Positions 5,159 through 63,502 of a DNA stretch of 64,000 nt are shown one piece after another. The stretch is from an uncultured Planctomycetales bacterium (lineage in GTDB: Bacteria; Omnitrophota; Gorgyraeia; Gygaellales; Profunditerraquicolaceae). The position numbers and the translations under genes are program-made. The stretch spans positions 47,321 to 111,320 of the forward strand of contig CAZOGI010000003.1 in assembly GCA_964579435.1 (NCBI GenBank). The letters run 5' to 3'. Under the pieces are notes generated by a model. That model had not been told where the DNA came from. It saw only the letters and a list, made by a program, of their open reading frames with translations, and made no database searches. Numbering within the stretch: the stretch's first letter is position 1; each line of letters begins with the position of its first letter.

Positions 5159-5322
5159 AATCCCGCGTTCGTGTGCTATACTTAAATTGTAAACGCACCA
5201 TTTGACAATTTGACACAAGCACCCTACTGAAAAGGGCAAACCAGGAGCGATCCTGGGGCGCAAAGCTATCGGTCCGCCACGAAGCGACGGCGGACGGCCG
5301 GGCTGCCAAAGAGGGGCACTAT

Positions 5323-21751: not shown

Positions 21752-21825
21752 GGGCCCATAGCTCAGTCGGTCAGAGCAGGTGACTCATAATCACTTGGTC
21801 GGAGGTTCGAATCCCCCTGGGCCCA
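21752..21825 (+). tRNA. tRNA with CAU anticodon (elongator Met or Ile2/lysidine type); 74 nt, no encoded CCA
   Basis: Cloverleaf: acceptor GGGCCCA/TGGGCCC, D arm GCTC..GAGC, anticodon loop CTCATAA, T loop TTCGAAT; G1-C72 paired, so not initiator-type. Confidence 0.8.
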
Positions 21826-22110: not shown

Positions 22111-22187
22111 GGGCATTTAGCTCAGCTGGTTAGAGCGCGTGCCTCACATGCACGAGGTCAGAGGTTCAAGTCCTCTAATGCCCACCA
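22111..22187 (+). tRNA. tRNA-Val (anticodon CAC), 77 nt with encoded CCA
   Basis: Acceptor GGGCATT/AATGCCC, anticodon stem CGTGC/GCACG, loop CTCACAT, T loop TTCAAGT, 3' ACCA followed by a T-run. Confidence 0.85.
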
Positions 22188-22954: not shown

Positions 22955-23435
22955 GTTTTTTATCGACGGCGCTTCCAAGGGCAATCCCGGGCACGCGGGT
23001 ATCGGGGTCGTCGTGACGCGCGGCAAGGAGACGATCCGCACCATCTCCGAATATATCGGCGAAGCGACCAATAATACCGCCGAGTACCGCGCGCTGCTGC
23101 GGGCGTTGCGCGAAGCGGTTGGCCTGCGCGCTTCGAGCGTGCGGATCTTTTCCGATAGCGAGCTTTTGTGCCGACAGGTGAACGGACAGTACCGGGTGAA
23201 AGATCCGCATCTGCGGTTGCTCTTTCAGGAAGCGACGCAGCTGCTTTCCCGTTTCGCGCTCATTTCGGTAGAGCATATCAGGCGCGAGGAGAACAGCGGC
23301 GCCGACCGGCTCGCCACGCTGGCGGTGAAAGAGCATTTGAAGACAACTCATCAGTCCGGTTTCGGCAGACAGCGAGTGGCCGCTCCGCTTACCAAAAGCG
23401 GAGAGGAAAGTCCGGGCTCCGGAGGGCAAGCGTAG
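22932..23435 (+). CDS. RNase H (type 1, RVT_3-like) family protein; the 3' ~70 nt of the ORF run into rnpB, so the true stop or functional end may be earlier
   Basis: FIDGASKGNPGHAGIGVVV...TNNTAEYRALLRAL...DSELLCRQ...NSGADRLA are RNase HI catalytic blocks (DEDD). Confidence 0.6.
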   Translation: MMTSQPLEFFIDGASKGNPGHAGIGVVVTRGKETIRTISEYIGEATNNTAEYRALLRALREAVGLRASSVRIFSDSELLCRQVNGQYRVKDPHLRLLFQEATQLLSRFALISVEHIRREENSGADRLATLAVKEHLKTTHQSGFGRQRVAAPLTKSGEESPGSGGQA

Positions 23436-23722
23436 CGGGTAACTCCCGTCCTGCGGTACCTGCCGCAGCGGATAGCTTTTGCCTCATACGCAGAAGCCAC
23501 AAACGCGTGATCGTTTCGTTTGTGAGAGCCACAGAGACGAGTCCCCGCCAACGGCGGGGGGTGAAACGCGGCAATCTCTACGCGGAGCAAGGCCAAATAG
23601 GAGACGAGGGCGCCCTCCCCGTCATTTAGTCTCGGGTTGGCTGCTTGATCCCGGCGGCAACGCCGGGGCTCAGAGGAATGGCCACGTAGGTAAAACAGGA
23701 CCCGGCTTATGCTGTCTGCCGT
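23362..23722 (+). ncRNA. rnpB: RNase P RNA (rnpB), bacterial type A
   Basis: Universal blocks GAGGAAAGTCCGGGCTCC (P4 5' strand), GGTAACTCCCG, AGCAAGGCCAAATAGG, ACAGGACCCGGCTTA (P4 3' strand); P1 pairing GGCAGACAGC / GCTGTCTGCC; T-rich tail. Confidence 0.85.
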
Positions 23723-23767
23723 TTTATTTAGACGATAAAACACCTAAGGACGTAAAGGAGGAGTCAG

Positions 23768-34928: not shown

Positions 34929-35138
34929 CCGTTCTTCTTCCCGTCGAGCCTCCGGTGTTTTCCCGCAGTGAAAACGCTTTCCCGTTCGCTCTGTTTGCGT
35001 CTTGAAATGCAAGCAGTTATGAGAAATACTTTAAGCGGAAAATGGAGCTTCACGAGAAAGGCAAATCGTTCGTCCGGGATGGCGAATGAGGCGCAAAGCC
35101 AAGGATCCCCACCAGCCACAGGAGCATCACCGGGGATA

Positions 35139-35187
35139 GCCGGGTTGCCGAAGGAATCATTTAGAAAATGGGCAACCCGGCTTTTTA
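35139..35187 (+). terminator. Intrinsic terminator (11-bp stem GCCGGGTTGCC...GGCAACCCGGC plus TTTTT) downstream of plsY
   Basis: Perfect 11-bp inverted repeat with a 21-nt loop and T-run. Confidence 0.45.
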
Positions 35188-42665: not shown

Positions 42666-42934
42666 CCCCTTTGGCAACCCCGCTATCCGCCATTACCGCA
42701 TTGGCGGACCGGAAGCTTTGCGCCCTAGCATTACTGCTAGTTTGCCTTTTTCAGAAGGACTGTTACCTGATTGTCAATTTAACCCCGTTAGAATTTCCCA
42801 ATCTTGCTTTCAGCCACACCATTTCTCTAACGGGGCTACTATAAATATAGCATACAATTCTAAAATGTCAAGGCTGGCAAATGATTTTTTGCGAAATTGC
42901 ACCGTTGCATTTGCACAAAATGCACCGGGCGCGC

Positions 42935-49978: not shown

Positions 49979-51286
49979 ATGGCAATGGCTGGATCGAAGG
50001 TGCGCAGGATCATCACGCGTTTGAGCGTGGCGGCGGTCGCTGCCGGAACGCTCGGCGCGGCGACCGTTCTCTGGGCCGCCGATAAGAAAAAAGAAGATCT
50101 CTTCCGGCAGGTCGAGCTATTTTCCGTCGCGCTCTCGACGATCCAGGCCGAATACGTCGAAGATGTCTCGCCGAAGGATCTTATTTACGGGGCGCTCAAG
50201 GGTATGGTCTCCTCTCTGGATCCCCACAGCCAGTTCCTCGACCCCGATACCTATAATGAGTTGAAGGTCGACACCGAAGGCAAGTTCGGGGGGGTCGGTA
50301 TCGAGATCACCGTCAAAGACGGTTTGCTGACGGTCGTGACCCCGATCGAGGATACCCCCGCGTGGAATGCGGGGGTAAAGGCGGGCGACCGTATCGTCAA
50401 GATCAACAATGAGCTGACCCGGGATGTAACCCTCACCGACGCGGTCAAGAAACTCCGGGGGACCCCCGGGGAACCGGTCGTGATCACGGTCCTTCGTGAA
50501 GGGGAGAAGAAACTGATTGATATCAAGCTGGTCCGGGACGTGATCAAGATCAAAGATATCAAAGAGGCGCGCATCCTTGAGGATGGGATCGCCTATGTCC
50601 GGCTTGTCGAGTTCCGCGAGGGTACCGCCGCTGACCTGCGCAAGACCCTGGAGCGTCTCTCCCAGGAGGGGATGAAGTCCCTGGTTTTGGATCTGCGCAA
50701 CAACCCCGGCGGGCTCCTGGATTCGGCGGTCGGGGTTGCCGAGCTTTTTGTCGAGCGCGGCAAACAGATCGTTTCCATCCAGGGGAAGCGTAAAGACCAG
50801 AATCAGGCGTTCGCGGCGCGCGCGAAAAAGACGTACGAGGCGCTTGCGATGGTGGTGCTCGTGAACGAGGGGTCGGCTTCGGGCAGCGAGATCGTCGCCG
50901 GGTGTCTGCAGGATTACCGTCGCGCGATCGTCGTCGGAACCAAGTCGTTCGGAAAGGGATCGGTCCAGACCGTCATTCCCCTCGGGGACGGCTCGGCGTT
51001 GCGTCTGACCACCAGCAAGTATTTTACCCCCTCGGGAAAGGTTATCCACAATAAAGGCGTCATGCCGGATATCATCGCCGAAGAAGGGCGTATCCAGATG
51101 GCAGAGAAAGAGGAGGAGACCGATCCTTCAGCCGAGACGGTTTTCGAAACGATAGATGCTCAGAACGCCAAGCCGAAAGAGCAGGCTGCGCACGACCAGT
51201 TCGACTACCGTTCGGACAACCAGTTGATGCGCGCCATAGACGTGCTGAAGGCGCTTTCTTTTTTTAAGGGCAACGGCGTTTCATAA
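49979..51286 (+). CDS. C-terminal processing peptidase (S41 family, PDZ-containing)
   Basis: Signal/anchor, PDZ domain GIEITVKDGLLTVVTPIEDTPAWNAGVKAGDRIVKIN, S41 catalytic region LVNEGSASGSEIVAG...GTKSFGKGSVQ. Confidence 0.85.
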   Translation: MAMAGSKVRRIITRLSVAAVAAGTLGAATVLWAADKKKEDLFRQVELFSVALSTIQAEYVEDVSPKDLIYGALKGMVSSLDPHSQFLDPDTYNELKVDTEGKFGGVGIEITVKDGLLTVVTPIEDTPAWNAGVKAGDRIVKINNELTRDVTLTDAVKKLRGTPGEPVVITVLREGEKKLIDIKLVRDVIKIKDIKEARILEDGIAYVRLVEFREGTAADLRKTLERLSQEGMKSLVLDLRNNPGGLLDSAVGVAELFVERGKQIVSIQGKRKDQNQAFAARAKKTYEALAMVVLVNEGSASGSEIVAGCLQDYRRAIVVGTKSFGKGSVQTVIPLGDGSALRLTTSKYFTPSGKVIHNKGVMPDIIAEEGRIQMAEKEEETDPSAETVFETIDAQNAKPKEQAAHDQFDYRSDNQLMRAIDVLKALSFFKGNGVS

Positions 51287-51312: not shown

Positions 51313-52131
51313 GTGCGGCGCGACCCGGTTCGACCATATAGAGTCACGGTTATCGTCCTGGCAGGGATCGTGGTCCTGGAGACGTTCGTGTTGCTGGCGA
51401 CGCTGGGCCGCGGCCGTGTAGCCGCTCCCGTGCGTGCGCGACCCGGCGAGCCAGGGGAACCCCTGCGCGGCACGATCGCGCTGGTGTTGGATGATTGGGG
51501 ATACGACAAAGATTCGGTCCTGCAGCTTCGTTCCTGGGCGGGGGCGGTGACGCTGGCGGTTTTGCCGGACCAGCCGTATGCCGCGCAGGTCGCCACCCAG
51601 GCCCACCGGTTTGGCTGCGAGGTGATCGTGCATCTGCCCTGCGAGCCTCACGAAGCACATGCCCTGGAGCCCAACACCGTCAAGGTGTCCATGAAACAGA
51701 GGCAGGTGGAACGGATCCTGAGGGAGGCGCTGCAGCGGGTCCCGTTCGCCGTCGGGATATCCAATCACATGGGTTCGCGGGTAACCGAGAACAGGAAGAC
51801 GATGGGATGGATTTTCGCTTTTCTGAAAGAACGGCGGCTCTTCTTCCTGGACAGTTTCGTCACCCACGCCAGCGTCTGCGAAAGGATCGCGCAGGAACAA
51901 GGCGTGGTTTTTGCCCGCCGCGACATCTTTTTGGATAACAACGAGGACCCTTGCGCGATCAGGGCACAGCTGGAGAAGCTCAAACGAAAAGCCGAAGCCA
52001 AGGGTTTTGCCGTCGGCATCGGCCATAACCGTCCCGCGACCCTGGCGGTGCTGGAGCGGGAAGTGCCTCGCCTGCGCCGGGAGGGTTTTCGTTTCGTGCG
52101 TCTGAGCGAAGGATTGAAGATCGTCCCGTAA
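51313..52131 (+). CDS. Divergent polysaccharide deacetylase family protein (YibQ-like)
   Basis: N-terminal TM, IALVLDDWGYD, HLPCEP, ISNHMGSR blocks typical of the divergent PDA/YibQ family. Confidence 0.7.
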   Translation: MRRDPVRPYRVTVIVLAGIVVLETFVLLATLGRGRVAAPVRARPGEPGEPLRGTIALVLDDWGYDKDSVLQLRSWAGAVTLAVLPDQPYAAQVATQAHRFGCEVIVHLPCEPHEAHALEPNTVKVSMKQRQVERILREALQRVPFAVGISNHMGSRVTENRKTMGWIFAFLKERRLFFLDSFVTHASVCERIAQEQGVVFARRDIFLDNNEDPCAIRAQLEKLKRKAEAKGFAVGIGHNRPATLAVLEREVPRLRREGFRFVRLSEGLKIVP

Positions 52132-52149: not shown

Positions 52150-53154
52150 ATGTTGACCTTGGGGATAGAGACGTCTTGCGACGAAACAGCCGCGGCTGTC
52201 GTTGCCAACGGCACGAGGGTCTGTTCGAGTGTCGTTTCCTCGAGCGTCTCTTTTCATGCCAAATACGGGGGCATCGTCCCCGAGATCGCCTTCCGCAGAC
52301 AGGCGGAGACGATCGTTGCGGTCTGCGCAGAGGCGTTGGCCCAGGTCAGGCAATGCCCGGGCCGGCTCGAAGCGGTCTGCGTGACGAGCCATCCGGGCCT
52401 GGCAGGCTCGCTCCTGGTCGGCGGTCTCTTCGCGGAGGCGTTCGCTTTCGCGCGGAAATTGCCGCTGATTGCAGTCGATCACCTGCGCGGGCATATCTAC
52501 GCGCCGTTTTTAAGCGAAAAGGTCCCCTTGCCGGCTGTGGCGTTGGTCGTCTCGGGCGGCCACACGAGTCTCTACCGGGTGCGTACGCTGCTGCAGATCG
52601 AGCCGCTCGGACATACCCGGGACGACGCCTGCGGCGAGGCATTCGACAAGGTCGCCAAGCTCTTGGGTTTGGGGTATCCCGGCGGGCCGGCGATCGAACG
52701 CCAGGCACGCCGAGGTGATCCGGAGGCGTTTCGGTTTTCCTGCTCCGGGACGAGCACGCCGTTCGATTTCAGCTTCAGCGGCATCAAGACCGCGGTTTTG
52801 CATACGGTCCTGCGCCGTCTCGGTCTTGCGGTGCAGGCAGGGTTGCCCGGGCCGAATGACCTGCGGCGGTTGCCCCGGCGGACCGTGAGCGATATCTGCG
52901 CTTCGTTCCAGCATGCGCTGGTGGGCGTGCTTATGCAGAAGGCGTTCGGTGCCTGCGCGGCAAAGCGGACCCCCCGTTTGCTCGTATCCGGGGGAGTGGC
53001 GGTTAACGGGTACCTTCGCCGTTCTTTTCTGCAGGAGGCAAAGAAACAAGGCATCCGGGTTTTTTTCCCCGAACCGCGCTATTGCACCGATAATGCGGCG
53101 ATGATTGCCGGCTACGGTTTTCATCTGGCGCGCACGAAACGCGACCGCCCCTAA
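52150..53154 (+). CDS. tsaD: tRNA N6-adenosine threonylcarbamoyltransferase TsaD
   Basis: MLTLGIETSCDETAAAV...HLRGH metal-binding motif; Kae1/TsaD family. Confidence 0.9.
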   Translation: MLTLGIETSCDETAAAVVANGTRVCSSVVSSSVSFHAKYGGIVPEIAFRRQAETIVAVCAEALAQVRQCPGRLEAVCVTSHPGLAGSLLVGGLFAEAFAFARKLPLIAVDHLRGHIYAPFLSEKVPLPAVALVVSGGHTSLYRVRTLLQIEPLGHTRDDACGEAFDKVAKLLGLGYPGGPAIERQARRGDPEAFRFSCSGTSTPFDFSFSGIKTAVLHTVLRRLGLAVQAGLPGPNDLRRLPRRTVSDICASFQHALVGVLMQKAFGACAAKRTPRLLVSGGVAVNGYLRRSFLQEAKKQGIRVFFPEPRYCTDNAAMIAGYGFHLARTKRDRP

Positions 53155-53168
53155 CAAAAGGAGGGAGT

Positions 53169-53645
53169 GTGCTGACCGATCTTCAGGTGATGGAGCGTCT
53201 GCTGCTGGCGGTGCTGCTCAGCGGTTTGATCGGGGTCGAGCGTGAAGTCCACCGCCGGACCGCGGGGCTACGGACCCATATCCTGGTGTGTCTGGGGTCC
53301 TGCCTTATCATGTTGACATCGCTGTATGTTTTTGATATATATATCAAATTAGTGCCGCTTGATCCTTCCCGCATCGCCTCGGGGGTCATCACCGGGATCG
53401 GTTTTCTCGGGGCCGGATCGATCATTCGCGCCCAAGAGCGGGTTACGGGGTTGACGACCGCTGCCAGCCTGTGGGTGGTTGCGGGCATCGGGTTGGCCCT
53501 CGGGTGCGGTTTCGTGCGGGCAGCGCTTTTTACGACCGCACTGGCGCTGGGGGTGCTGTTTTTTCTGCGCCGGGTCGAAGGTAGGTTGGTTTCTCGCTGG
53601 GTAAAAGGGGGAGGCGCCCATGGCTCTCGTGAAGAGGAAGACTGA
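53169..53645 (+). CDS. MgtC/SapB-family membrane protein
   Basis: ERLLLAVLLSGLIGVEREVHRRTAGLRTHILVCLGS is the MgtC N-terminal signature; GTG start after GGAGGGAG. Confidence 0.7.
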   Translation: MLTDLQVMERLLLAVLLSGLIGVEREVHRRTAGLRTHILVCLGSCLIMLTSLYVFDIYIKLVPLDPSRIASGVITGIGFLGAGSIIRAQERVTGLTTAASLWVVAGIGLALGCGFVRAALFTTALALGVLFFLRRVEGRLVSRWVKGGGAHGSREEED

Positions 53646-54126
53646 AGAGAAGATCCTTGACGTCGATGCGGCGATGCAGGGGACGCTGACGTTCAAGGAT
53701 CCGGTTAATCTGCGCATCAACGGAAAGTTCGAAGGAAACCTCGAGACGAAGGGTAACCTGACGATCGGCCAGACCGCGCAGGTGGCGGGGGATATCTTCG
53801 GGGATAACGTGATCATCGGCGGTCGGGTCAAGGGCAAAGTCACCGCGCGCCAACTGCTGACGCTTTTGCCGACGGCAATCGTCGAAGGCGATATCTTCCC
53901 GGTCAAGCTCAACGTCGCGGACGGGGCTATCCTGGAAGGCCGCTGCAGCATGCTGCACGATTTTCTCAATTCCGAGGAGCTCTCGCGCTACCTGGAGGTA
54001 GACGCGCGTTCCATCCGGGAATGGGCCCATTCCGGGAAGATCCCTGCAGTTGCTGACGGGGACGACTGGAAATTCGAGCGCAAGGCCGTCGATGCCTGGG
54101 TTGCCTCGGGGGAGATCCGCGCTTAA
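53620..54126 (+). CDS. Bactofilin-domain protein fused to a C-terminal excisionase/MerR-type helix-turn-helix (HTH_17-like) domain
   Basis: Bactofilin beta-helix repeats (INGKFEGNLETKGNLTIGQTAQVAGDIFGDNVIIGGRVKGKV..VEGDI..ADGAILEGR) then LNSEELSRYLEVDARSIREWAHSGKIPA..WKFERKAVDAWV. Confidence 0.55.
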   Translation: MALVKRKTEEKILDVDAAMQGTLTFKDPVNLRINGKFEGNLETKGNLTIGQTAQVAGDIFGDNVIIGGRVKGKVTARQLLTLLPTAIVEGDIFPVKLNVADGAILEGRCSMLHDFLNSEELSRYLEVDARSIREWAHSGKIPAVADGDDWKFERKAVDAWVASGEIRA

Positions 54127-54182: not shown

Positions 54183-54491
54183 ATGACCGACGAAAAGCTG
54201 TTGACCATACGGGAAGTTTCCCTTTCGCTGAACATATCCGAACGCCAGGTAATCGAGCTGGCGGAGAGCGGGACCGTTCCCGCCTACAAGATCGGCGGAG
54301 TGTACCTGCGTTTCAAGCGCCAGGAGGTGGAGGAGTACCGCAAGAAACTCGCGCAGCACCCCCATGCGGCTGCGCGCCCCAGCCCCGTTTCCTTCGGAGA
54401 ACGTCTGCGGGACTTTTTTTATTTCAACGATTTCTATATCTTCTCGGGGATCGTCATCGTTTCCATGCTCTACATCATTTTCCGTGGCTAA
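54183..54491 (+). CDS. Excisionase/MerR-type HTH domain protein with C-terminal transmembrane anchor
   Basis: LLTIREVSLSLNISERQVIELAESGTVPAYKIGGVYLRFKRQEVEEY (HTH_17-like) then the hydrophobic tail FYFNDFYIFSGIVIVSMLYIIF. Confidence 0.5.
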   Translation: MTDEKLLTIREVSLSLNISERQVIELAESGTVPAYKIGGVYLRFKRQEVEEYRKKLAQHPHAAARPSPVSFGERLRDFFYFNDFYIFSGIVIVSMLYIIFRG

Positions 54492-55188
54492 GCGCGTCCC
54501 TGGCGACTCCGGGTTTCTCGATCTTGGGTGCGCCCGGATCGATACCGGCCGCCGTGTCCGGCGCGGCTATCCGGAGGCGGTTTTCTGCCCCGGAAAGACG
54601 AGGCAGGCGCTCAGGACGATCACCGCCTCGTTCTTCAAGAGCAGAGAGACGCTGCTGTTGACGAAGCTGGACCCTGCTGCGTACCGTTGGCTGCGCGCCT
54701 CGTTCCCTACCCTGCGCTACCACAAGGAGGCGCGGCTGGGATACCGCGTTTTCTCGCCCAGGAAGCCTCAGGGTCTCGTTGCGGTGGTTACGGGCGGGAC
54801 CGCCGATATAGCGGTGGCCGAGGAAGCGGCGACGACCCTCTCGGTCATGGGAAACCGGGTTAGGCGCCTCTACGACGTCGGGGTTGCCGGGGTGCATCGT
54901 CTCTTCTCGTCCCTGGATGTCCTGCGTCAGGCGCGGGTCATCGTCGTCGTCGCGGGGATGGAAGGAGCTCTGGCCAGCGTCGTCAGCGGGCTGGTCTCCT
55001 GCGCCGTCGTGGCGGTGCCGACCAGCTGCGGATACGGCGCCCACTTCGGGGGGATCGCCCCGCTGCTGACGATGCTCAACAGCTGTTCGCCGGGCGTGGC
55101 AGTGGTCAATATCGACAACGGATTCGGGGCGGGGTATCTGGCTTCGCTCATCAATAATCCGCGGGAACGCGTTGCAGTAAAAGACTAA
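54484..55188 (+). CDS. larB: Nickel-pincer cofactor biosynthesis protein LarB (PurE-like carboxylase/hydrolase)
   Basis: GTG 54484 overlapping the upstream stop; N-terminal LarB region (DLGCARIDTGRRVRRGYPEAVFCPGKT), PurE-like core VAVVTGGTADIAVAEEA...VIVVVAGMEGALASVV. Confidence 0.7.
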   Translation: MAKRVPGDSGFLDLGCARIDTGRRVRRGYPEAVFCPGKTRQALRTITASFFKSRETLLLTKLDPAAYRWLRASFPTLRYHKEARLGYRVFSPRKPQGLVAVVTGGTADIAVAEEAATTLSVMGNRVRRLYDVGVAGVHRLFSSLDVLRQARVIVVVAGMEGALASVVSGLVSCAVVAVPTSCGYGAHFGGIAPLLTMLNSCSPGVAVVNIDNGFGAGYLASLINNPRERVAVKD

Positions 55189-55200
55189 GGAGGGTTCATC

Positions 55201-56523
55201 GTGGCGCTTTCGGGTCTGGATATCTATAAGCTGTTGCCTAAAACGAATTGCCGCGATTGCGGTTTTCCGACCTGCCTGGCGTTCGCTATGGCCCTGGCGA
55301 AGAAGTCCGTTGCACTGCAGAAGTGTCCGCACTTGAGCGCCCAGGCTCAGGAGACGCTGGAGGCATCGAGCCAGCCGCCGATACGGCTGGTCAGCGTGGG
55401 GGACCGGTTCCGGGCGGGTAACGAAACGGTACTTTTCCGTCACGAAGAGAAATTCCATAATCCCTGCGGGATCGGTTTTGTGATCGACGATACCGATCCT
55501 GCCGCGCGCGTGCAGGAGGCGCTGGCGGCCGTATCTTCGTTTGTCTTCGAGCGCGTCGGCCAGACCTTAAGCGCAGACCTCATCGCGCTGCGGCAGCGCT
55601 CAAGCGCGGCTGCGTTCGTGCAACTGGTCGAAGCTGCGGCGAAGAAGTCGGCGCTGGGCCTGGTCTTGATGAGCAGCGACGTCGCTGCGGTGCGCGCGAG
55701 CCTGTCCGCTCTGAAAGGCAGAAAGCCGCTCCTTTTCCCCGGGGAAGACGCGGACCGCGCGGCCTTCTGTGCTCTCGCCAAAGAATTTTCGGTCCCGCTG
55801 GTGGTGTCCGCCGGGGATCTGGCGAAGCTTGAGGAACGCAGCATCGAGGCGGCAAAGGCGGGGGTGGGCGATCTGATGCTTTATCCGGGCCGCAAAGATC
55901 CCGCGCAAACGCTCTGGGACTTGACCCAGATCAGGCGGCAGGCGCTCAAGAAATCGAACCGCGCGCTCGGCTATCCGGTCATCGCCGTGGTTGAGGCGGA
56001 CGATCCTTTCGCGGAGGTCGCCGAGGCCGCCGCTTACATCGCCAAATATGCCGGCATGGTGCTTGTCAGGGGGACGCAGCCCTGGCAGGCGCTCTCGCTG
56101 CTGACGGTACGCCAGAACATCTACACCGATCCGCAGAAACCGCTGCAGATCGAGGCGAAGCTGTATCCGGTCGGCGCGGTTAGCGCGTCTTCGCCGCTTC
56201 TGATCACCACCAATTTTTCGCTCAGTTACTACACGGTGCTGGGTGAAGTCGAAGCAAGCAAGGTCCCTTCCTATATCCTCAGCGTCGATACCGAGGGGAT
56301 GTCGGTCTTGACCGCCTGGGCGGCGGAAAAGTTCAACGCCGAGACCATCACCGCTTCCCTGAAGGCGCAGAATGCCGAGGCTGCCGTCAGCCGCCGGCGG
56401 GTCGTTATCCCCGGCTATGTCGCGGTCATGAGCGGAGACCTGCAGGAGCAGTCCGGTTGGGAAGTCCTCGTCGGCCCGAAAGAGGCAGCCGGCCTGCCGG
56501 CTTTCCTGAAAAACCTTTCCTAA
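55201..56523 (+). CDS. acsC: Corrinoid iron-sulfur protein large subunit (acetyl-CoA decarbonylase/synthase gamma subunit, AcsC/CdhE)
   Basis: N-terminal 4Fe-4S cluster motif LPKTNCRDCGFPTCLAFAMALA, TIM-barrel and C-terminal B12-binding domain; 440 aa. Confidence 0.8.
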   Translation: MALSGLDIYKLLPKTNCRDCGFPTCLAFAMALAKKSVALQKCPHLSAQAQETLEASSQPPIRLVSVGDRFRAGNETVLFRHEEKFHNPCGIGFVIDDTDPAARVQEALAAVSSFVFERVGQTLSADLIALRQRSSAAAFVQLVEAAAKKSALGLVLMSSDVAAVRASLSALKGRKPLLFPGEDADRAAFCALAKEFSVPLVVSAGDLAKLEERSIEAAKAGVGDLMLYPGRKDPAQTLWDLTQIRRQALKKSNRALGYPVIAVVEADDPFAEVAEAAAYIAKYAGMVLVRGTQPWQALSLLTVRQNIYTDPQKPLQIEAKLYPVGAVSASSPLLITTNFSLSYYTVLGEVEASKVPSYILSVDTEGMSVLTAWAAEKFNAETITASLKAQNAEAAVSRRRVVIPGYVAVMSGDLQEQSGWEVLVGPKEAAGLPAFLKNLS

Positions 56524-56551
56524 GAAGAAGGCGGTGGGGCCCTGTGCCCGC

Positions 56552-58486
56552 ATGAGCACCTGTACGGTCCATTTCCTTCCCGATAACAAAAAGATATCTG
56601 TTGAGCGCGAGACGACGCTGTTGTCGGCCGCTCTCTCCGCTGGGCTCTACATTAATTCCAGTTGCGGCGGGGAAGGGGTGTGCGGCCGTTGCAAGGTTAT
56701 CGTGCGCAGCGGGCCGGTATCGGCGCACGCAACCGGCGCGCTCTCCCCGAAAGAACGTTCCGGCGGAATGGTCCTTGCCTGCGCCACGACGGTGCTCGGC
56801 GATTGCCTGATCGAGATCCCCCCCGAGTCGCGTCTTTCCCTGGATGGACTGACTCAGGAAGAGATACGCAAAAGGCTCGGTTCGGTCTTTACCGCTCCGG
56901 AAGACGTTGAGACCGCCGCGTGGCGGCCGGGAGCGCCTTTTGCGCTGGAACCGCTGGTCCAGAAACGATTCGTGCGTTTGCCCGAACCGAACCTGAACGA
57001 CAGGGTGAGCGATCTGGAGCGCCTGGAGAGGGAGCTTGCCCGTGAACTGAGCTCTCCGATCGCTTACGCGCCCCTGGCAACCCTGAAATCCCTGGGAGAG
57101 CTGCTGCGCAAGAGCGATTGGCAGGTTACCGCGGCGGTGGGGCGGGACGGGGCATTCGCGGAGTTGGTGACGGTCGAACCCGCAGACACCTCCCCGCGCA
57201 ATAAAGGAGTCTGTTTCGATATCGGCACGACGACCGTTACCGCGCAGCTGGTCGACCTGACCAAGGGGACGGTTCTGGGGACCAAGGCTACGTACAACAA
57301 ACAGGCCGCGTTCGGCAGCGATGTGATCACCCGTATCATCTATGCCAAAGACGCCGACGGGTTGCAGGTACTGCATCGCGCGGTCGTCGAGGACATGAAC
57401 GAGATGGTGCGAACGTTGGCGCACGAGCAAGGGGTGGACTTGAACGATATCACGGCCGCGGTCTGCGCCGGGAATACGACGATGACGCACCTGCTCCTGC
57501 GGGTCGATCCCACCTACATCAGGCGGGAGCCGTATGTGCCTACTTTTAACGCGGTGTCCTTGCTGCGTTCTTCGGAGATAGAGCTGCGCATCAATCCGCG
57601 CGGATTGGTTGCGTTCATCCCGGGAGTCGCCAGTTATGTCGGCGGCGATATCGTTGCCGGGATACTTTCCAGCCGACTGTACGAGCAGGAAGGGCTCTCG
57701 GCGCTTATCGATATCGGCACCAACGGGGAAATCGCCATCGGCAACCGGGAGTTCATCATCTCTGCCGCTGCTTCGGCGGGGCCGGCGTTCGAGGGCAGCG
57801 GTGTCTCCTGCGGCATGCGCGCGGGAAACGGCGCCATACAGCGTGTGGCCTTTAGCGCAAAAGCCGAACGGCCGCAGGTGGAGTGCATCGGGCAGGGGGC
57901 TCCCAGCGGCATATGCGGCTCCGGGTATATCTCGCTCATCTCGCAGATGCTGCGCAGCGGTTTTCTGGATAAGGACGGAAAGATCTGTCCGCATCCCGGC
58001 GGCAGGGTGCGGGAACGCGACGGGATAAAAGAATTCGTCGTCCTTTTCGAAGGGGAAGAGGGGGCGGTTCGGGATGTCGTGATCACCGAAGCCGACATCG
58101 AGAACCTGAAGCGCGCCAAGGCGGCCATCTATGCCGCGACCGCATCCCTGCTGAAGCATCTGGGGGTTGGCGCCGCTTCGTTGCAGCGGCTTTTCATCGC
58201 CGGGGGATTCGGGACGTTCCTCGATGTCGAAGAGGCGGTCAGGATTGGTCTTTTGCCCGATATCGAGCGCTCGCGCATTGTCTTTATCGGTAACAGCTCT
58301 CTTGCCGGCGCGCGCGAGGTTCTCCTTTCGCAGAAAGCCCTGGGGCTTTCCCGCGAGCTGGCCCGCCGGACGACGTATGTGGAGCTTTCGGTCGAGCGGG
58401 GGTATATGGACGAATACATGGCCGCGCTCTTTTTCCCGCACACGGATTTGGATCTTTTTCCCAGCTTCTACGGGGCGCGCTCATGA
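56552..58486 (+). CDS. Reductive activator of corrinoid Fe-S protein (RACo-like: plant-type 2Fe-2S ferredoxin domain plus ASKHA ATPase domain)
   Basis: N-terminal ferredoxin CGGEGVCGRCKV...LAC; central and C-terminal ASKHA-fold motifs (DIGTTTV, IDIGTNGEIA, ASYVGGDIVAG); start at internal ATG 56552 (ORF opens at 56534). Confidence 0.75.
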   Translation: MSTCTVHFLPDNKKISVERETTLLSAALSAGLYINSSCGGEGVCGRCKVIVRSGPVSAHATGALSPKERSGGMVLACATTVLGDCLIEIPPESRLSLDGLTQEEIRKRLGSVFTAPEDVETAAWRPGAPFALEPLVQKRFVRLPEPNLNDRVSDLERLERELARELSSPIAYAPLATLKSLGELLRKSDWQVTAAVGRDGAFAELVTVEPADTSPRNKGVCFDIGTTTVTAQLVDLTKGTVLGTKATYNKQAAFGSDVITRIIYAKDADGLQVLHRAVVEDMNEMVRTLAHEQGVDLNDITAAVCAGNTTMTHLLLRVDPTYIRREPYVPTFNAVSLLRSSEIELRINPRGLVAFIPGVASYVGGDIVAGILSSRLYEQEGLSALIDIGTNGEIAIGNREFIISAAASAGPAFEGSGVSCGMRAGNGAIQRVAFSAKAERPQVECIGQGAPSGICGSGYISLISQMLRSGFLDKDGKICPHPGGRVRERDGIKEFVVLFEGEEGAVRDVVITEADIENLKRAKAAIYAATASLLKHLGVGAASLQRLFIAGGFGTFLDVEEAVRIGLLPDIERSRIVFIGNSSLAGAREVLLSQKALGLSRELARRTTYVELSVERGYMDEYMAALFFPHTDLDLFPSFYGARS

Positions 58487-59229
58487 GCTTTACGATCGCG
58501 ATCGCAGGAAAGGGAGGGGTCGGCAAGACAACCGTCGCCGCGCTCCTGGTGCGGCTCCTGAGCGAGAAGAAAGCAGGCTCGGTCCTGGCCATTGACGCGG
58601 ACCCCAACAGCAATCTCGCCGAGGTCCTCGGGGTCCCCGCGGCAAAAACAGTGGGGGAGATACTCGATGAGATAAGCGCTCACCCCGAGAGCGTTCCCGC
58701 CGGCATGTCGAAAGACCGCTTTATCGAGTTTCAGGTGCAGACGGCGGTCGCGGAGGCTGGCGGTTTCGATATCCTCTCGATGGGCAGGCCGGAGGGGCCG
58801 GGGTGTTACTGTTTCGTCAACAACGTGCTGCGCAATGCGATCGGCCGCCTGACGCGCGAGTACGATTACGTGGTGATCGACAATGAGGCGGGTCTGGAAC
58901 ACCTCTCGCGTCGAACGACGCGAGCCGCAGAGCTCTTGCTGGTCGTCTCCGATGCGACGGTCGTCGGCCTGAAGGCTGCGTCGCGCATTGACGAGCTGTC
59001 CAGAGAGCTCAAGATCCAGGTCAAGAGAAGGGGGCTCATCCTTAACCGGATCGCCGACGCACAGGAGACCGGGGCGGGAGCCCCGCAGCTGAGCGTCCTG
59101 GCGCGCCTTCCGTCGGATGAGCAGGTGTACCAGCTAAGCGTTACGGGAGCGTCCATTTTTAACCTTGCGCCTTCATCAACGGCGTTGCGCGCTTTGGAAG
59201 CGGGAGGGGATGTGCTATGGCGGAGTTGA
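58483..59229 (+). CDS. cooC: CooC/AcsF-type nickel-insertion ATPase (MinD/ParA family)
   Basis: Deviant Walker A AIAGKGGVGKTT, CxC motif GPGCYCF typical of CooC; 248 aa. Confidence 0.75.
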   Translation: MSFTIAIAGKGGVGKTTVAALLVRLLSEKKAGSVLAIDADPNSNLAEVLGVPAAKTVGEILDEISAHPESVPAGMSKDRFIEFQVQTAVAEAGGFDILSMGRPEGPGCYCFVNNVLRNAIGRLTREYDYVVIDNEAGLEHLSRRTTRAAELLLVVSDATVVGLKAASRIDELSRELKIQVKRRGLILNRIADAQETGAGAPQLSVLARLPSDEQVYQLSVTGASIFNLAPSSTALRALEAGGDVLWRS

Positions 59230-60179
59230 TCCTGGACAAGCAGAGCGGTTCCATCCATTCGGTTACCATCGGAGCGACGCCGGCGCAGGGGGGCACGCGC
59301 AGCGCGACCCTTACCGTCGGCGGGCAGAAGGCGCTTCCCTACTTATTTGCCGACGGGCAGATCCCTCACTCCCCGGTTGTCGCCTTCGAGATCTGGGATT
59401 GCCCTCCCGATGACTGGCCGCAGGAAACCGTCGACGCTTACGGGGCCGCGGTCACCGATCCGGTTGCCTGGGCCCAGCAATGCGTTTCGAAGTTCAACGC
59501 GAACGTCCTTTGTCTTAACCTGCAGGGCGCGCACCCCGACCGCACCAATCATTCCGCATCCGCCTCGGCGGCCCTCGTGGCCAAGATCCTCAAGGCGGTC
59601 CCGGTGCCGCTGATCATCCTGGGTTGCGGGGACGATGCCAAGGATAATCTCGTTCTCCCGGCGGTCTGCGAAGCGGCGAAGGGGGAGCGCTGCCTCATCG
59701 GCTCCTGCGTTCAGAATAACTATAAGACGCTCGTCGCGGCGGCGGTTGCGGACAAGCAGAACGTGATCGCCGAATCGCCGATCGATATCAATATCGCCAA
59801 ACAGCTCAACATCCTTATCTCGGACATGGGTCTGCCTCTGGAGCGTATCGTTATCAATCCGACGATCGGAGCGCTGGGGTACGGTCTGGAATACGCCTAT
59901 TCGATCATGGAGCGCGCCCGGCTTGCCGCCCTGGCAGGGGATAAAACGCTGGCCTCTCCCTTCATCTGTTTCGTCGGCCTGGAGGCAGCGCGGGCAAAAG
60001 AGGTCCGGGCAAGCGCCCAGGAGTTCCCGGCCTGGGGCGATCGCCGGCAGCGTTGTGTCGCCTGGGAGCTGCTGACGGCGACCACCCTCCTGCAGGCAGG
60101 CGCGGATATCCTGGTTATGCGTCATCCCGAAGCGATTCTACGGGCTGAGGCGTTCATTCGTTCCTTGATGCAGCGGTGA
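59217..60179 (+). CDS. acsD: Corrinoid iron-sulfur protein small subunit (acetyl-CoA decarbonylase/synthase delta subunit, AcsD/CdhD)
   Basis: TIM-barrel delta-subunit fold; follows acsC-RACo-cooC and precedes acsE. Confidence 0.8.
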   Translation: MAELILDKQSGSIHSVTIGATPAQGGTRSATLTVGGQKALPYLFADGQIPHSPVVAFEIWDCPPDDWPQETVDAYGAAVTDPVAWAQQCVSKFNANVLCLNLQGAHPDRTNHSASASAALVAKILKAVPVPLIILGCGDDAKDNLVLPAVCEAAKGERCLIGSCVQNNYKTLVAAAVADKQNVIAESPIDINIAKQLNILISDMGLPLERIVINPTIGALGYGLEYAYSIMERARLAALAGDKTLASPFICFVGLEAARAKEVRASAQEFPAWGDRRQRCVAWELLTATTLLQAGADILVMRHPEAILRAEAFIRSLMQR

Positions 60180-60213
60180 GTCTCGGGGGTATCCGAACGC
60201 AAAGGAGACAACG

Positions 60214-61002
60214 GTGTTCATTATCGGAGAACTGATCAACGGGATGTACGCCGCGGTCGGCAATGCGCTGCGTGCGAAAGACCGTTCGGCCATCGAGCGG
60301 TGCGCGCGCGACCAGGTCGCGGCAGGCGCCAGCGCCCTCGATATCAACTGCGGGCCGGCGTCGAAGGATCCGGTTGCGGACATGCGCTGGCTGGTTGAAA
60401 CCGTGCAAGGGGTTACCGATGCGACTCTCTGCATCGACTCCAGCAAGCCGGCGGTTATCGAAGCGGGCTTGCAAGCGGCCAAAAACAGAGCTATTATAAA
60501 CTCGACGACCGCGGATGAAGCGAAGCTGGGGGCGCTCATACCCCTTGCCCTGCGCTACCACGCGCAGCTTATCGGCCTGACCATGAACGCGCGTGGCGTG
60601 CCGCAGACCAAAGACCAGCGGGTGGAGCTGGCCGCGACCATCGTCGCTGCCTGCGCGGATCAGGGGTTGGCGGCAGCGGACCTGTATCTGGATCCCATCG
60701 TGCTGCCCGTCAATGTCGCGCAGGCCCAGATAGGGGAGATCATCGAGGCGATACGGGAGTTCCGGATCATTGCGGAGCCGTCCCCGCGCACGATCGTGGG
60801 GTTAAGCAACATTTCCCAGGGGGCCAGCAACCGGCCGCTGATAAACCGCACCTTCGCGGTTATGGCCGCGTACAGCGGACTGGATGCGGCTATACTCGAT
60901 CCGCTGGACAAGGAACTCATCGACGCGATCATCACGGCCGAGGTCATCGTGAACCGGAATATCTACTGCGATTCCTTTCTGGAGGCCTACCGGAGACGAT
61001 AA
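60214..61002 (+). CDS. acsE: Methyltetrahydrofolate:corrinoid/iron-sulfur protein methyltransferase (AcsE; pterin-binding DHPS-like)
   Basis: MFIIGELINGM...ALDINCGPA...INSTT..GLSNISQG are pterin-binding MeTr blocks; GTG start. Confidence 0.8.
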   Translation: MFIIGELINGMYAAVGNALRAKDRSAIERCARDQVAAGASALDINCGPASKDPVADMRWLVETVQGVTDATLCIDSSKPAVIEAGLQAAKNRAIINSTTADEAKLGALIPLALRYHAQLIGLTMNARGVPQTKDQRVELAATIVAACADQGLAAADLYLDPIVLPVNVAQAQIGEIIEAIREFRIIAEPSPRTIVGLSNISQGASNRPLINRTFAVMAAYSGLDAAILDPLDKELIDAIITAEVIVNRNIYCDSFLEAYRRR

Positions 61003-61389
61003 ATGAAGCGGACGCGGGTGGTTCGGCGTATATTCGGGGTGCAGGGGTTCCGCGAGAGTTTCAAGCTCGCCCTTAAAGGCGTCGCCTATCTGTTCTTCTA
61101 TCACCGGAACATGCGCCTGATATTCATCTGCGGGTTTGCGGCTTTCCTCTTCGGCATTTGGCTGAAGCTCAAGGGCATCGAGCTGGCCGCCCTCTGCATC
61201 ACGATAACGCTGGTCTTCATGGCGGAAATCTTCAATACCGCCATCGAGCTGATGATGGATATGCTGACCGAGGAATACCACGTGAAGATCAAGCTGGTCA
61301 AGGATATCGCCGCAGCGGTGGTGATCCTGACCTGCATGAACGCCGCCGCGGTCGGCTACATTCTGTTTGCCCGCAAGTATATCCGTTAG
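61003..61389 (+). CDS. dgkA: Diacylglycerol kinase (DgkA family, prokaryotic)
   Basis: Three-TM, 128 aa, EIFNTAIELMMD and FYHRNMRL blocks typical of DgkA. Confidence 0.8.
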   Translation: MKRTRVVRRIFGVQGFRESFKLALKGVAYLFFYHRNMRLIFICGFAAFLFGIWLKLKGIELAALCITITLVFMAEIFNTAIELMMDMLTEEYHVKIKLVKDIAAAVVILTCMNAAAVGYILFARKYIR

Positions 61390-62353
61390 GGCAAGGGGAG
61401 GTGTGGTGCGCAAACGGGTTCCCGCCCTGCTCATTTTTGTCGGCGTCTTTCTGGGCACTGTTCTCCTTAAGGACCACCTGGTCAAAGCCGTGGTGGTCTA
61501 TTCGCTGTCACGGACCTTCGGCGCCGACGCATCCGTCGAAGGTTTTTCTTTCGGGGTGCTGCGTCCCGTCATCCGGATCAGGCGGCTGCTGCTTTTCAAC
61601 CCGCGGGGATTTCCGGCTGATGTGCTCCTGGATGTAGCGGGAGCGGAGATTTTTTACGACCGGACGGCGCTGCTTAAGGGAAAGTTGGTCTTTGACCAGG
61701 TGCGCCTGCAGCTGCGCGAAGTCGTTATCGCCAAGGCCGGCCATTCGAACACCAATATCGAGGCGCTTTCAATCTTTAAGGGAGAGAAATCGCTGCAGAA
61801 AATCCGTCTCCCTCTTTCGATCCGCTATCTTTCCCTCGATGTGGACCGTATCGTGTACAAGGATTTTACGAGTCGCCCGGCGGCCGGTGTCCAGGAATAC
61901 GAGCTGGGCATACGCGACAGCGTCTTCCAGAATGTCAGCTCGCCGCGGCAGCTGATGGGGCTGGTGCTGGCCGAATCTCTCGGTACCGCGGCGGCGCGCA
62001 ATTCGGGGGTTACCCGCGTTGCCGCGCTCTTCGGGGTGTCGGCGCGGCCGTCCAGGGTCCCGGTGCTCTATACGGGCAGGGACAGCGCCTTTGCGGTATT
62101 GGATCAGGAGCCCGGACAGGCGTATGATGCGGCGTGTGCGGTGTTGCGCCAGACCGGCAGGATCGACTCCGAGGACCGGCAGGCCGGGGTGGTCAAAGCG
62201 ACGGTCCGGGGGCGCACGGCTGTTTTGACCGTTCAGGCACGCGGCGAGACGCGCGCGCGCATCACGGTATCGGCACGCCTTCTCTTTTTCCCGCAGCCGG
62301 CCCTGGCGGGCAGGCTTTTAAGCGACATAACCGCGCACTCCGCCCTGCAGTAA
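61367..62353 (+). CDS. Hypothetical membrane-anchored protein (AsmA/DUF748-like character uncertain)
   Basis: N-terminal TM ALLIFVGVFLGTVLL; likely start at GTG 61405 after AAGGGGAGG; no diagnostic motifs. Confidence 0.4.
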   Translation: MPASISVRARGGVVRKRVPALLIFVGVFLGTVLLKDHLVKAVVVYSLSRTFGADASVEGFSFGVLRPVIRIRRLLLFNPRGFPADVLLDVAGAEIFYDRTALLKGKLVFDQVRLQLREVVIAKAGHSNTNIEALSIFKGEKSLQKIRLPLSIRYLSLDVDRIVYKDFTSRPAAGVQEYELGIRDSVFQNVSSPRQLMGLVLAESLGTAAARNSGVTRVAALFGVSARPSRVPVLYTGRDSAFAVLDQEPGQAYDAACAVLRQTGRIDSEDRQAGVVKATVRGRTAVLTVQARGETRARITVSARLLFFPQPALAGRLLSDITAHSALQ

Positions 62354-62409: not shown

Positions 62410-62483
62410 GGCGGCGTAGCTCAGTCTGATAGAGCACTCGGCTCATACCCGATCGGTCAGTGGTTTAAATCCACTCGCCGCCA
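62410..62483 (+). tRNA. tRNA with CAU anticodon (Met or Ile2), 74 nt, no encoded CCA
   Basis: Acceptor GGCGGCG/CGCCGCC, D arm GCTC..GAGC, anticodon loop CTCATAC, T loop TTTAAAT. Confidence 0.8.
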
Positions 62484-63445: not shown

Positions 63446-63466
63446 CGTTAGGGCCCGGTGTGTCAA

Positions 63467-63502
63467 ACGGCTCCGTCCTTTACGGGCGGGGCCGTTTTTT
63501 TT
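63467..63502 (+). terminator. Intrinsic terminator (12-bp stem with two G-U pairs plus T8)
   Basis: ACGGCTCCGTCC-TTTAC-GGGCGGGGCCGT then TTTTTTTT; followed by a TATAAT box at 63526-63531. Confidence 0.5.

Follow-up and report, generated by a model that had tools for sequence, protein, structure and literature searches.

The genes at positions 54484 to 61002 of the stretch of DNA analyzed here (64 kb; hereafter the window) raise the question of why the corrinoid part of the Wood-Ljungdahl pathway stands directly behind larB and apart from any CODH/ACS gene. This region encodes, on the + strand and in order, LarB, AcsC, RACo, an AcsF/CooC-type ATPase, AcsD and AcsE, all six of them full length and with intact catalytic motifs (Table 1). 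The source is a GC-rich member of the Omnitrophota that most resembles Gygaellales. The preliminary description of this DNA had outlined the same five-gene cassette preceded by larB, and profile and structure-sequence matches bear out its coordinates and gene identities throughout. It had also placed dgkA and unrelated hypothetical genes after acsE, where we find dgkA, a weak DUF748-like ORF and a tRNA. The successive spacings from the HTH_17 gene through larB, acsC, RACo, acsF, acsD and acsE to dgkA are -8, 12, 10, -4, -13, 34 and 0 nt. The 102-amino-acid HTH_17 gene, which shares its last 8 nt with the start of larB, was absent from the preliminary description. A consensus scan yielded no convincing promoter or terminator from the bactofilin gene to dgkA, the sole strong terminator-like site being located at 63465-63497.

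Table 1. Features of the larB-acs region and its neighbors (positions in the window).
Feature	Position	Strand	Supporting match or remark
Bactofilin with C-terminal HTH_17	53620..54126	+	Pfam Bactofilin 87 bits, HTH_17 41 bits; upstream neighbor
HTH_17/excisionase-family gene, 102 aa	54183..54491	+	TIGR01764 'excise' 36.5 bits
larB	54484..55188	+	GTG start (mechanical ORF from 54364); NCBIfam NF033503 276.8 bits, cut-off 175
acsC, CoFeSP large subunit	55201..56523	+	PRK04165 512 bits, cut-off 306; Pfam FeS + CdhD
RACo (orf7/AcsV-like), ATP-dependent CoFeSP reductive activator	56534..58486	+	Fer2 + RACo_linker + Raco_middle + RACo_C_ter
acsF-type CooC-family Ni-insertion ATPase	58483..59229	+	78 bits to CooC1 3KJE; P-loop, CXC
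acsD, CoFeSP small subunit	59217..60179	+	NF003376 405 bits, cut-off 280
acsE, methyl-H4folate:CoFeSP methyltransferase (MeTr)	60214..61002	+	PRK07535 305 bits, cut-off 259
dgkA	61003..61389	+	Pfam DAGK_prokar 93 bits; begins immediately after the acsE stop
DUF748-like ORF (weak)	61367..62353	+	PF05359 25 bits, below cut-off 50; last protein gene of the co-directional block
tRNA	62410-62483		Rfam 62.8 bits

Gene-order comparison with relatives, as proposed in the preliminary description, revealed that the layout recurs across an Omnitrophota clade. The cassette lies directly behind larB in 58 to 60 of 80 species-representative relatives (hereafter larB-type loci), with 7 to 170 nt between larB and the cassette or with the two overlapping. 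The shared layout of some 60 Omnitrophota species marks it as a lineage trait rather than the oddity of a single genome. The junction sits inside a block of housekeeping synteny of approximately 40 kb, and the order yebC...plsY...gatCAB-ctpA-...-larB-acs-dgkA is common to the window, L107 (the L003 contig) and L110. A bactofilin-HTH_17 gene occupies the corresponding place in about 55 related loci (51 to 78% identity), and dgkA follows acsE in about 24. The layout also varies. In 33 to 35 loci, larB and acsC are separated by an FmdE-domain gene, and a genuine larC, for which both the LarC1 and LarC2 models score above cut-off, occupies this place in L047, L073, L075 and L078. In a neighbor-joining (NJ) tree of AcsC, three of these four larC-bearing loci together branch off first within the clade. 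In three species (L036, L038 and L042) the cassette lies inside the trp operon, where larB is not in front of it, and L068 carries the cassette without larB. In L070, a phage-integrase-like gene lies ahead of acsC.

Other Omnitrophota classes retain a classical fhs-folD-metF-cooS-acsB-acsC-RACo-acsF-acsD-acsE cluster, found in L058 (complete chromosome CP070780.1), L056, L063, L081, L082 and L095. The upstream order in these canonical clusters is fhs-fchA-folD-metF-(cooC)-cooS-fer4-NADHox-acsB; the five cassette genes come directly after it, ordered as in the window. When compared to the canonical clusters of CP070780.1 and Aquitaenarimonas noxiae (GCA_002780005.1), the cassette of the window is orthologous (48 to 60% identity) and internally collinear. 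Its surroundings differ: instead of fhs-fchA-folD-metF-cooS-fer4-NADHox-acsB upstream and panB-panE downstream, it is embedded in a gatCAB-ctpA-tsaD-mgtC-bactofilin-HTH17-larB ... dgkA block. In the AcsC tree, all larB-linked copies group together, and the acsB-linked copies form their sister clade. Taxonomy tracks this split, the larB type belonging to Gygaellales (GCA_001805765.1, B70_G16, UBA1562, GWF2_43_52) and the canonical-type L097 to Gorgyraia.

A larB-acsC junction could also stem from chimeric assembly or binning, or from the recent acquisition of an island; the cassette has been mobile over evolutionary time, and L070 has its phage-integrase-like gene. However, the junction recurs at 50 to 65% protein identity in 58 to 60 species, the genomes of which were assembled independently, GC content is flat through the cassette region (0.60 to 0.63), and the AcsC phylogeny follows taxonomy. 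Cross-genome synteny thus effectively refutes an artefact or a recent transfer.

The encoded proteins are orthodox members of their families. AcsC gives 393 bits to 2H9A (chain A) and has the N-terminal [4Fe-4S] motif, the CdhD TIM-barrel domain and the C-terminal corrinoid-binding domain; its CX2CX4CX16C motif is present in the window and in 55 of 55 larB-type orthologues. HgcA of the HgcA/HgcB mercury-methylation system is homologous to the C-terminal corrinoid-binding domain of AcsC. Unlike HgcA, the window protein is a full-length CoFeSP large subunit partnered by AcsD, and its assignment as HgcA was rejected at 60 to 66 bits, far under the HgcA cut-offs of 275 to 285. AcsD matches 4DJD_D with 355 bits. 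AcsE aligns end to end with the Moorella thermoacetica MeTr 2E7F (276 bits, residues 1 to 262), including the GLSNIS (Asn199 position), CIDS, INST and YLDP motifs, and has the pterin-binding barrel. RACo reaches 538 bits to its Carboxydothermus hydrogenoformans counterpart 3ZYY over residues 11 to 644. The 2Fe-2S cysteines and the ASKHA motifs DIGTTT, DIGTNGE and AGGFG align with those of 3ZYY, in agreement with the domain make-up given in the preliminary description; with the NCBIfam AcsV 'exception' model, RACo scores 635 bits, under the cut-off of 800.

The ATPase contains a GKGGVGKT P-loop (deviant Walker A) and a GPGCYC (CXC) motif. It shares 48 to 55% identity with the paralogue located between RACo and acsD in canonical clusters, versus 32 to 33% with the cooS-adjacent CooC, and on this sequence comparison it is orthologous to the paralogue in the acsF position. 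The gene is kept in 40 of about 52 larB-type loci, with the CXC motif conserved in 40/40 and the P-loop in 39/40, and is lost in approximately 20%. The order acsC-RACo-acsF-acsD-acsE and its motifs are shared with the classical clusters of M. thermoacetica and C. hydrogenoformans, the gene order of which is acsA-acsB-acsC-orf7(RACo)-acsF-acsD-acsE. The matches to solved CoFeSP, RACo and MeTr structures range from 276 to 538 bits, versus 78 bits to CooC1. What differs from the classical cluster is the upstream part, where larB and the HTH_17 gene replace acsA/cooS and acsB.

Neither acsB, cooS, fhs, folD nor metF was found in the 64-kb window: tblastn with MetF, FolD, CooS, the CooS-adjacent ferredoxin and NADH-oxidoreductase, and AcsB of a canonical Omnitrophota cluster gave no match there, and Pfam scans of the other large ORFs returned housekeeping genes only. 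The earlier statement that CODH/ACS is missing in cis thus holds for the whole 64 kb. It extends to relatives as well, since AcsB, CooS, MetF and FolD had no tblastn match in any larB-type locus (±10 kb), and no acsB or cooS occurs in their syntenic block of about 40 kb. Six Omnitrophota-like AcsB loci were sampled, none of them from an assembly of the larB-type set. In 6/6, acsC lies directly downstream of acsB, leaving no orphan acsB locus among them. No contig was common to the AcsB, AcsC and PgsA match lists. A location of acsB-acsC ahead of pgsA in larB-type genomes, as seen in L105 and L106, was rejected; in the window, L107 and L110, lepB precedes pgsA, and L105 and L106 belong to a distant lineage with a PgsA identity of just 41 to 45%.

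Judging from the AcsF orthology and the family-level literature, the acs cluster is probably split, this cassette being its corrinoid half and ACS having its gene at another site in the genome. The corrinoid (methyl-carrier) half would have been physically parted from the catalytic half in one Omnitrophota lineage (Velamenicoccia/Gygaellales-like). On the known biochemistry of these families, Co(I) of the AcsC/AcsD corrinoid iron-sulfur protein would be methylated from CH3-H4folate by AcsE, RACo would drive the ATP-dependent re-reduction of adventitiously oxidized Co(II), and the AcsF-type ATPase would deliver nickel to acetyl-CoA synthase. Methyl-CoFeSP could then pass the methyl group on to this distant AcsB, or receive one from AcsB if the pathway is reversed. 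We infer that AcsB, with or without CooS, resides elsewhere in the genome. The retention of acsF with its motifs in most larB-type loci implies a nickel enzyme as target. In addition, for Profunditerraquicolaceae and UBA12090, Seymour et al. 2023 (PMC10066038) report Fhs, FolD, MetF and 'AcsB-E', with CooS variable; this statement concerns whole families and may derive from module calls rather than from AcsB in each genome. Against the split reading count the lack of acsB and cooS in cis in the window, the larB-type loci and the approximately 40-kb block, the acsC linkage of all six sampled AcsB loci, and the loss of acsF in about one fifth of the loci.

The same observations suit a lineage without ACS, in which MeTr, CoFeSP and RACo carry methyl groups between methyl-H4folate and another acceptor, such as a core MetE-type methionine synthase (MesB-like) or another corrinoid-dependent methyltransferase. 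The cassette relocates intact as a unit, being found behind larB, in the trp operon and behind acsB, and CoFeSP has been proposed as the methyl donor of MesB (PMC7857596). A related known system is that of Dehalococcoides mccartyi, which has an incomplete Wood-Ljungdahl pathway (acsB, acsC and acsD without acsA, acsE and metF) that feeds a MesB methionine synthase (PMC7857596; PMC9324843). Its likeness to the locus lies in a partial acs set outside classical acetogenesis, with CoFeSP as methyl hub. However, Dehalococcoides keeps AcsB and lacks AcsE, whereas the window has AcsE, RACo and AcsF, no AcsB in cis and no MesB-like gene nearby. By Pfam labels, no Meth_synt_2 or MesB-like gene occurs among the window ORFs or next to the cassette in any larB-type locus. 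In the MesB study, MesB occurred only in organisms scored Wood-Ljungdahl-positive with acsBCD as marker (PMC7857596). The AcsB-E reported for the families concerned, as cited above, and the widespread retention of an intact acsF, the only known role of which is the nickel loading of ACS, also argue against such a shuttle, which we regard as unlikely.

The second half of the question concerns larB. The encoded protein is a genuine LarB, as the preliminary description had it: its assignment as a PurE paralog was rejected on score (276.8 bits, versus 27.5 bits to the purE model TIGR01162 with its cut-off of 149.6) and on the MLNSC motif. It gives 219 bits to Lactiplantibacillus plantarum LarB (7MJ0/8SOQ), and the MLNSC cysteine, located at residue 221 of the 7MJ0 chain, is kept in the window and in 58/58 orthologues. 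Cys221 is the catalytic cysteine of the L. plantarum enzyme, and its role was reportedly addressed by Rankin et al. 2021. At the Ser127 position, the window protein has Ala (GTAD). In L. plantarum LarB, the substitution S127A favors the carboxylated product (PMC13524815). The lar operon of that species (larA-larB-larC-larE) and the window share an orthologous LarB with Cys221. They differ in that larA, larC and larE are absent from the window and that corrinoid genes follow larB. Pfam scans of the ORFs revealed no larA, larC, larE or other nickel-pincer-using enzyme within the 64 kb.

This arrangement allows the acs cassette to be viewed as part of one nickel-related regulon or maturation unit, together with the HTH_17 gene, larB and, in relatives, larC or the FmdE-domain gene. 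The nickel-pincer pathway, or an FmdE-like protein standing in for LarC, would then serve the nickel/corrinoid enzymes or share their regulation. The recurrence of larB directly ahead of the cassette is in line with this possibility, as are the four loci with a genuine larC between larB and acsC, the occupation of the larC slot by the FmdE-domain gene, the overlap of the HTH_17 gene with the larB start, and the nature of the acsF and larC products, which are both nickel-insertion proteins. The HTH_17 protein, present in 55/80 related loci and 58.7% identical to that encoded by the 104-amino-acid HTH_17 gene of L085 (tblastn), has a hydrophobic C-terminus and is a candidate regulator of the block.

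Several observations nevertheless make such a unit quite improbable. The surrounding 40 kb (tsaD, ctpA, gatCAB, mgtC) are equally conserved and equally tightly packed, so that larB adjacency alone weighs little. Four loci (L036, L038, L042 and L068) and every canonical cluster have the cassette without larB; the cassette does not need larB, and the four loci argue against an obligatory functional link between LarB and CoFeSP. The window has no larE, larA or other user of the nickel-pincer cofactor, and a search of the 64 kb with Rfam identified no riboswitch of the cobalamin, NiCo or THF type. A literature search returned no paper joining LarB with CoFeSP. The position of larB is best explained as synteny inherited from an ancestral HTH17-larB-larC-acsC... 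arrangement. Still, larB and the cassette may be co-transcribed, perhaps sharing nickel-related transcription. That the cassette works without CODH/ACS as a free methyl shuttle and has, perhaps, a functional tie to the nickel-pincer genes that precede it appears very improbable. If it were so, the FmdE-domain protein, which takes the place of LarC in most species, would represent a new partner in the handling of nickel or of a cofactor.

The novelty of the locus is a new arrangement of a known system, the biochemistry of which is well known. Its significance lies in how pathways are called in uncultivated phyla, where such calls often rest on module completeness. Since the corrinoid half moves as a five-gene unit of its own, finding it is no proof of a working CODH/ACS; likewise, a missing acsB nearby is no proof that acsB is absent. 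Finally, the placement of larB, with larC or the FmdE-domain gene, by nickel/corrinoid machinery in about 60 species could bear on the role of nickel-pincer genes in the absence of LarA.

In the window, the corrinoid (methyl-carrier) cassette of the Wood-Ljungdahl acs cluster, acsC-RACo-acsF-acsD-acsE, lies directly behind larB. This confirms the observation made in the preliminary description, whose interval of 54484-61002 begins precisely at the GTG start of larB and ends with the stop codon of acsE. The genes are part of a single unbroken co-directional run on the plus strand, extending from ~47 kb to 62.4 kb. The HTH_17 gene and larB overlap by 8 nt, RACo and the cooC-family gene by 4 nt, and the latter and acsD by 13 nt, while gaps of 12, 10, 34, and 0 nt separate larB/acsC, acsC/RACo, acsD/acsE, and acsE/dgkA, respectively. 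Co-transcription of larB with the cassette is possible. The two HTH_17-containing genes upstream of larB, one of them fused to a bactofilin, are kept as a pair in ~55 Omnitrophota species.

Features of the window and of related loci from comparison genomes (L numbers)
Feature	Location	Strand	Remark
c-di-GMP-I riboswitch aptamer	5225-5310	+	
tRNA	21752-21825		
tRNA	22111-22184		
RNase P RNA, class A	23365-23723		
c-di-GMP-I riboswitch aptamer	35050-35152	+	
ORF, 531 aa	35595-37190		no Pfam match
c-di-GMP-I riboswitch aptamer	42669-42755	-	
ORF, 1091 aa	42935-46210	-	no Pfam match
gatA, gatB	~47 kb onward	+	start of co-directional run
ctpA	49979-51286	+	
Polysaccharide deacetylase, divergent	51313-52131	+	
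tsaD	52150-53154	+	
mgtC	53169-53645	+	
Bactofilin	53620-54126	+	C-terminal HTH_17 domain
HTH_17/excisionase-family protein	54183-54491	+	102 aa, hydrophobic tail
larB	54484-55188	+	GTG start
acsC	55201-56523	+	
RACo	56534-58486	+	
CooC-family ATPase	58483-59229	+	acsF-type
acsD	59217-60179	+	
acsE	60214-61002	+	
dgkA	61003-61389	+	
ORF	61367-62353	+	weak DUF748-like
tRNA	62410-62483	+	
FmdE-domain gene	L085 9547-9999		150 aa; PF02663; nearest structure 2GVI
Cassette between trpF and trpB	L036 9315-17082		
acsB-acsC	L105 3731-6298		
acsB-acsC	L106 12352-16236		
Methyltransferase and restriction enzyme insertion	L113 12342-14092		
Phage-integrase N-terminal SAM-like domain gene	L070 13-621		contig labelled Nitrospirota
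acsB with intein	L058 6164-9991		

Profile scores, structure alignments, and motifs show that all six proteins (LarB, AcsC, RACo, the CooC-like ATPase, AcsD, and AcsE) had been named correctly. LarB scores 276.8 bits on the NCBIfam LarB equivalog (cut-off, 175) versus only 27.5 bits on the purE model, ruling out a PurE paralogue, and aligns over 213 residues with Lactiplantibacillus plantarum LarB (7MJ0/8SOQ; 219 bits). Its MLNSC cysteine, which corresponds to residue 221 of 7MJ0, is present in the window and in 58/58 orthologues covered. Position 127 is alanine (GTAD), as in about half of the orthologues; the S127A exchange in L. plantarum LarB reportedly favours formation of the carboxylated, productive product (PMC13524815). 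On its sequence, the window larB is a genuine nickel-pincer biosynthesis gene. AcsC carries the CX2CX4CX16C cluster motif (393 bits to 2H9A), AcsD scores 355 bits to 4DJD_D, and AcsE matches Moorella MeTr end to end (residues 1-262; 276 bits) and has the motifs GLSN(I/V)S, CxDS, INST, and YxDP in place. RACo (538 bits to 3ZYY) aligns at its 2Fe-2S cysteines and at the phosphate and adenosine motifs of the ASKHA domain. The CooC-like ATPase has a P-loop and the CXC nickel motif and shares 48-55% identity with the paralogue that complete clusters carry between their RACo and acsD genes versus 32-33% with the cooS-adjacent CooC; position and similarity identify it as an acsF-type gene.

The claim that CODH/ACS catalytic genes are not encoded in cis was borne out. 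Using tblastn, MetF, FolD, CooS, the adjacent ferredoxin, the NADH-oxidoreductase, and AcsB from the complete Omnitrophota cluster L058 were queried against the window and 80 related loci, with no match anywhere in the 64-kb window or in any locus carrying the cassette behind larB (larB-type). The 64-kb window also contains no fhs, larA, larC, larE, or MetE-like gene. Pfam scans of its remaining large ORFs revealed housekeeping functions only, including pilus/T2SS, lipid A, dnaG, rpoD, ruvCA, scpB, aromatic amino-acid genes, cmk, lepA, lepB, pgsA, plsY, and gatA. One of the three c-di-GMP-I aptamers is a GGC variant, and the aptamer starting at 35050 precedes the 531-aa ORF. Two related loci (L085 and L107) have a 1077- to 1078-aa ORF where the window has the 1091-aa ORF, before gatC. 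The RNase P RNA and the two tRNAs near it are located between a GDSL-lipase-like gene and yebC.

To place this layout, one genome per GTDB species was surveyed, yielding the 80 loci onto which the window genes were mapped. The top AcsC and PgsA matches (60-76% identity) are nearly all Candidatus Omnitrophota MAGs. The order ctpA-deacetylase-tsaD-mgtC-bactofilin-HTH17-larB-acsC-RACo-acsF-acsD-acsE-dgkA recurs in the majority of the loci at 40-78% protein identity, and the pgsA surroundings in two relatives extend the common order upstream (yebC-ruvC-ruvA-scpB-pheA-...-lepA-lepB-pgsA-plsY) to ~40 kb in total. Directly upstream of acsC, larB is found in 21 loci (window included), larB-larC in 4, trpF in 3, and HTH17 without larB in 1; an FmdE-domain gene follows larB in about 33-35 (33, plus 2 truncated). 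In every other locus whose upstream sequence is long enough and whose upstream neighbour could be identified, that neighbour is acsB. An AcsC distance tree divides cleanly into acsB-linked and larB-linked clades. Taxonomy matches this split: Seymour et al. 2023 (PMC10066038) list the larB-type genomes GCA_001805765.1, B70_G16, UBA1562, and GWF2_43_52 under Velamenicoccia/Gygaellales and the canonical GCA_002780005.1 under Gorgyraia in their genome table. The window has an unusually high GC content (0.60) and is nearest to loci L036 and L057 by composition and in the AcsC tree. The layout is a lineage-wide variant organization of a well-known system with orthodox proteins.

The four larC genes between larB and acsC (L047, L073, L075, and L078) are recognised by both NCBIfam LarC models and by Pfam Ni_insertion, and the last three loci together branch off first within the larB-linked clade. 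The FmdE-domain gene occupies this same slot; the window has neither. In the simplest history, the cassette would have landed inside or beside an ancestral HTH17-larB-larC locus, and larC would afterwards have given way to the FmdE-domain gene or, as in the window, have disappeared. This recurrent substitution is the most curious detail, and not a feature of the window. As to whether the cassette depends functionally on larB, the evidence argues against it: the cassette occurs without larB in L036, L038, L042, L068, and all canonical clusters, unrelated neighbouring housekeeping genes are equally syntenic, and the 64-kb window contains no larE or larA and no cobalamin, NiCo, or THF riboswitch. 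A literature link between LarB and CoFeSP was not found. Nickel-related co-regulation, the other option raised, may perhaps occur, with the overlapping HTH_17 gene as candidate regulator.

The canonical Omnitrophota order is trmD-rplS-rnhB-fhs-fchA-folD-metF-(cooC)-cooS-fer4-NADHox-acsB, followed by acsC-RACo-acsF-acsD-acsE-panB-panE, and the window carries the same five-gene unit. In L036, L038, and L042, the cassette interrupts the tryptophan operon, with trpF on one side and trpB on the other; the L042 copy lacks acsF. Since it is found behind acsB, behind larB, and flanked by trpF/trpB, the cassette has been relocated as an intact unit on at least two occasions. In a distant lineage, L105 and L106 show another type of split, in which acsB precedes a divergent copy of acsC (46% identity to that of the window) and then pgsA-plsY, with no RACo, acsD, or acsE in cis. 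In L113, a DNA methyltransferase and a HinfI-type restriction enzyme are inserted between acsB and acsC, and a response regulator and a 1059-aa ORF separate acsC from RACo. These departures and the cassette relocations show that splitting of the acs cluster is common in and around Omnitrophota. The integrase-domain gene in L070 lies directly upstream of acsC. In several Omnitrophota, AcsB carries a LAGLIDADG homing-endonuclease intein, which results in products of 1170-1275 aa; these are L058, P0160, P0165, P0171, P0181, P0182, P0204, P0212, and P0220.

We consider it fairly probable that the cassette is the corrinoid half of a split cluster, with ACS encoded elsewhere in the genome. It is orthologous to acsB-linked cassettes, and the acsF-type gene, in the larB-type loci that have it, retains the CXC motif in 40/40 and the P-loop in 39/40. 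At the family level, Seymour et al. 2023 (PMC10066038) report Fhs, FolD, MetF, and "AcsB-E" for Profunditerraquicolaceae and UBA12090, with CooS variable. However, none of six sampled AcsB loci is detached from acsC, and acsF is lost in about one-fifth of larB-type loci, findings that are against or neutral to ACS being elsewhere. A stand-alone methyl shuttle seems unlikely; one example would be the delivery of methyl groups to a MesB-type methionine synthase, a role proposed for CoFeSP (PMC7857596). The initial interpretation is partly supported: its gene identities and the lack of CODH/ACS in cis hold. The finding chiefly counsels care in calling pathways and offers a starting point for work on lar genes in organisms that have no LarA.
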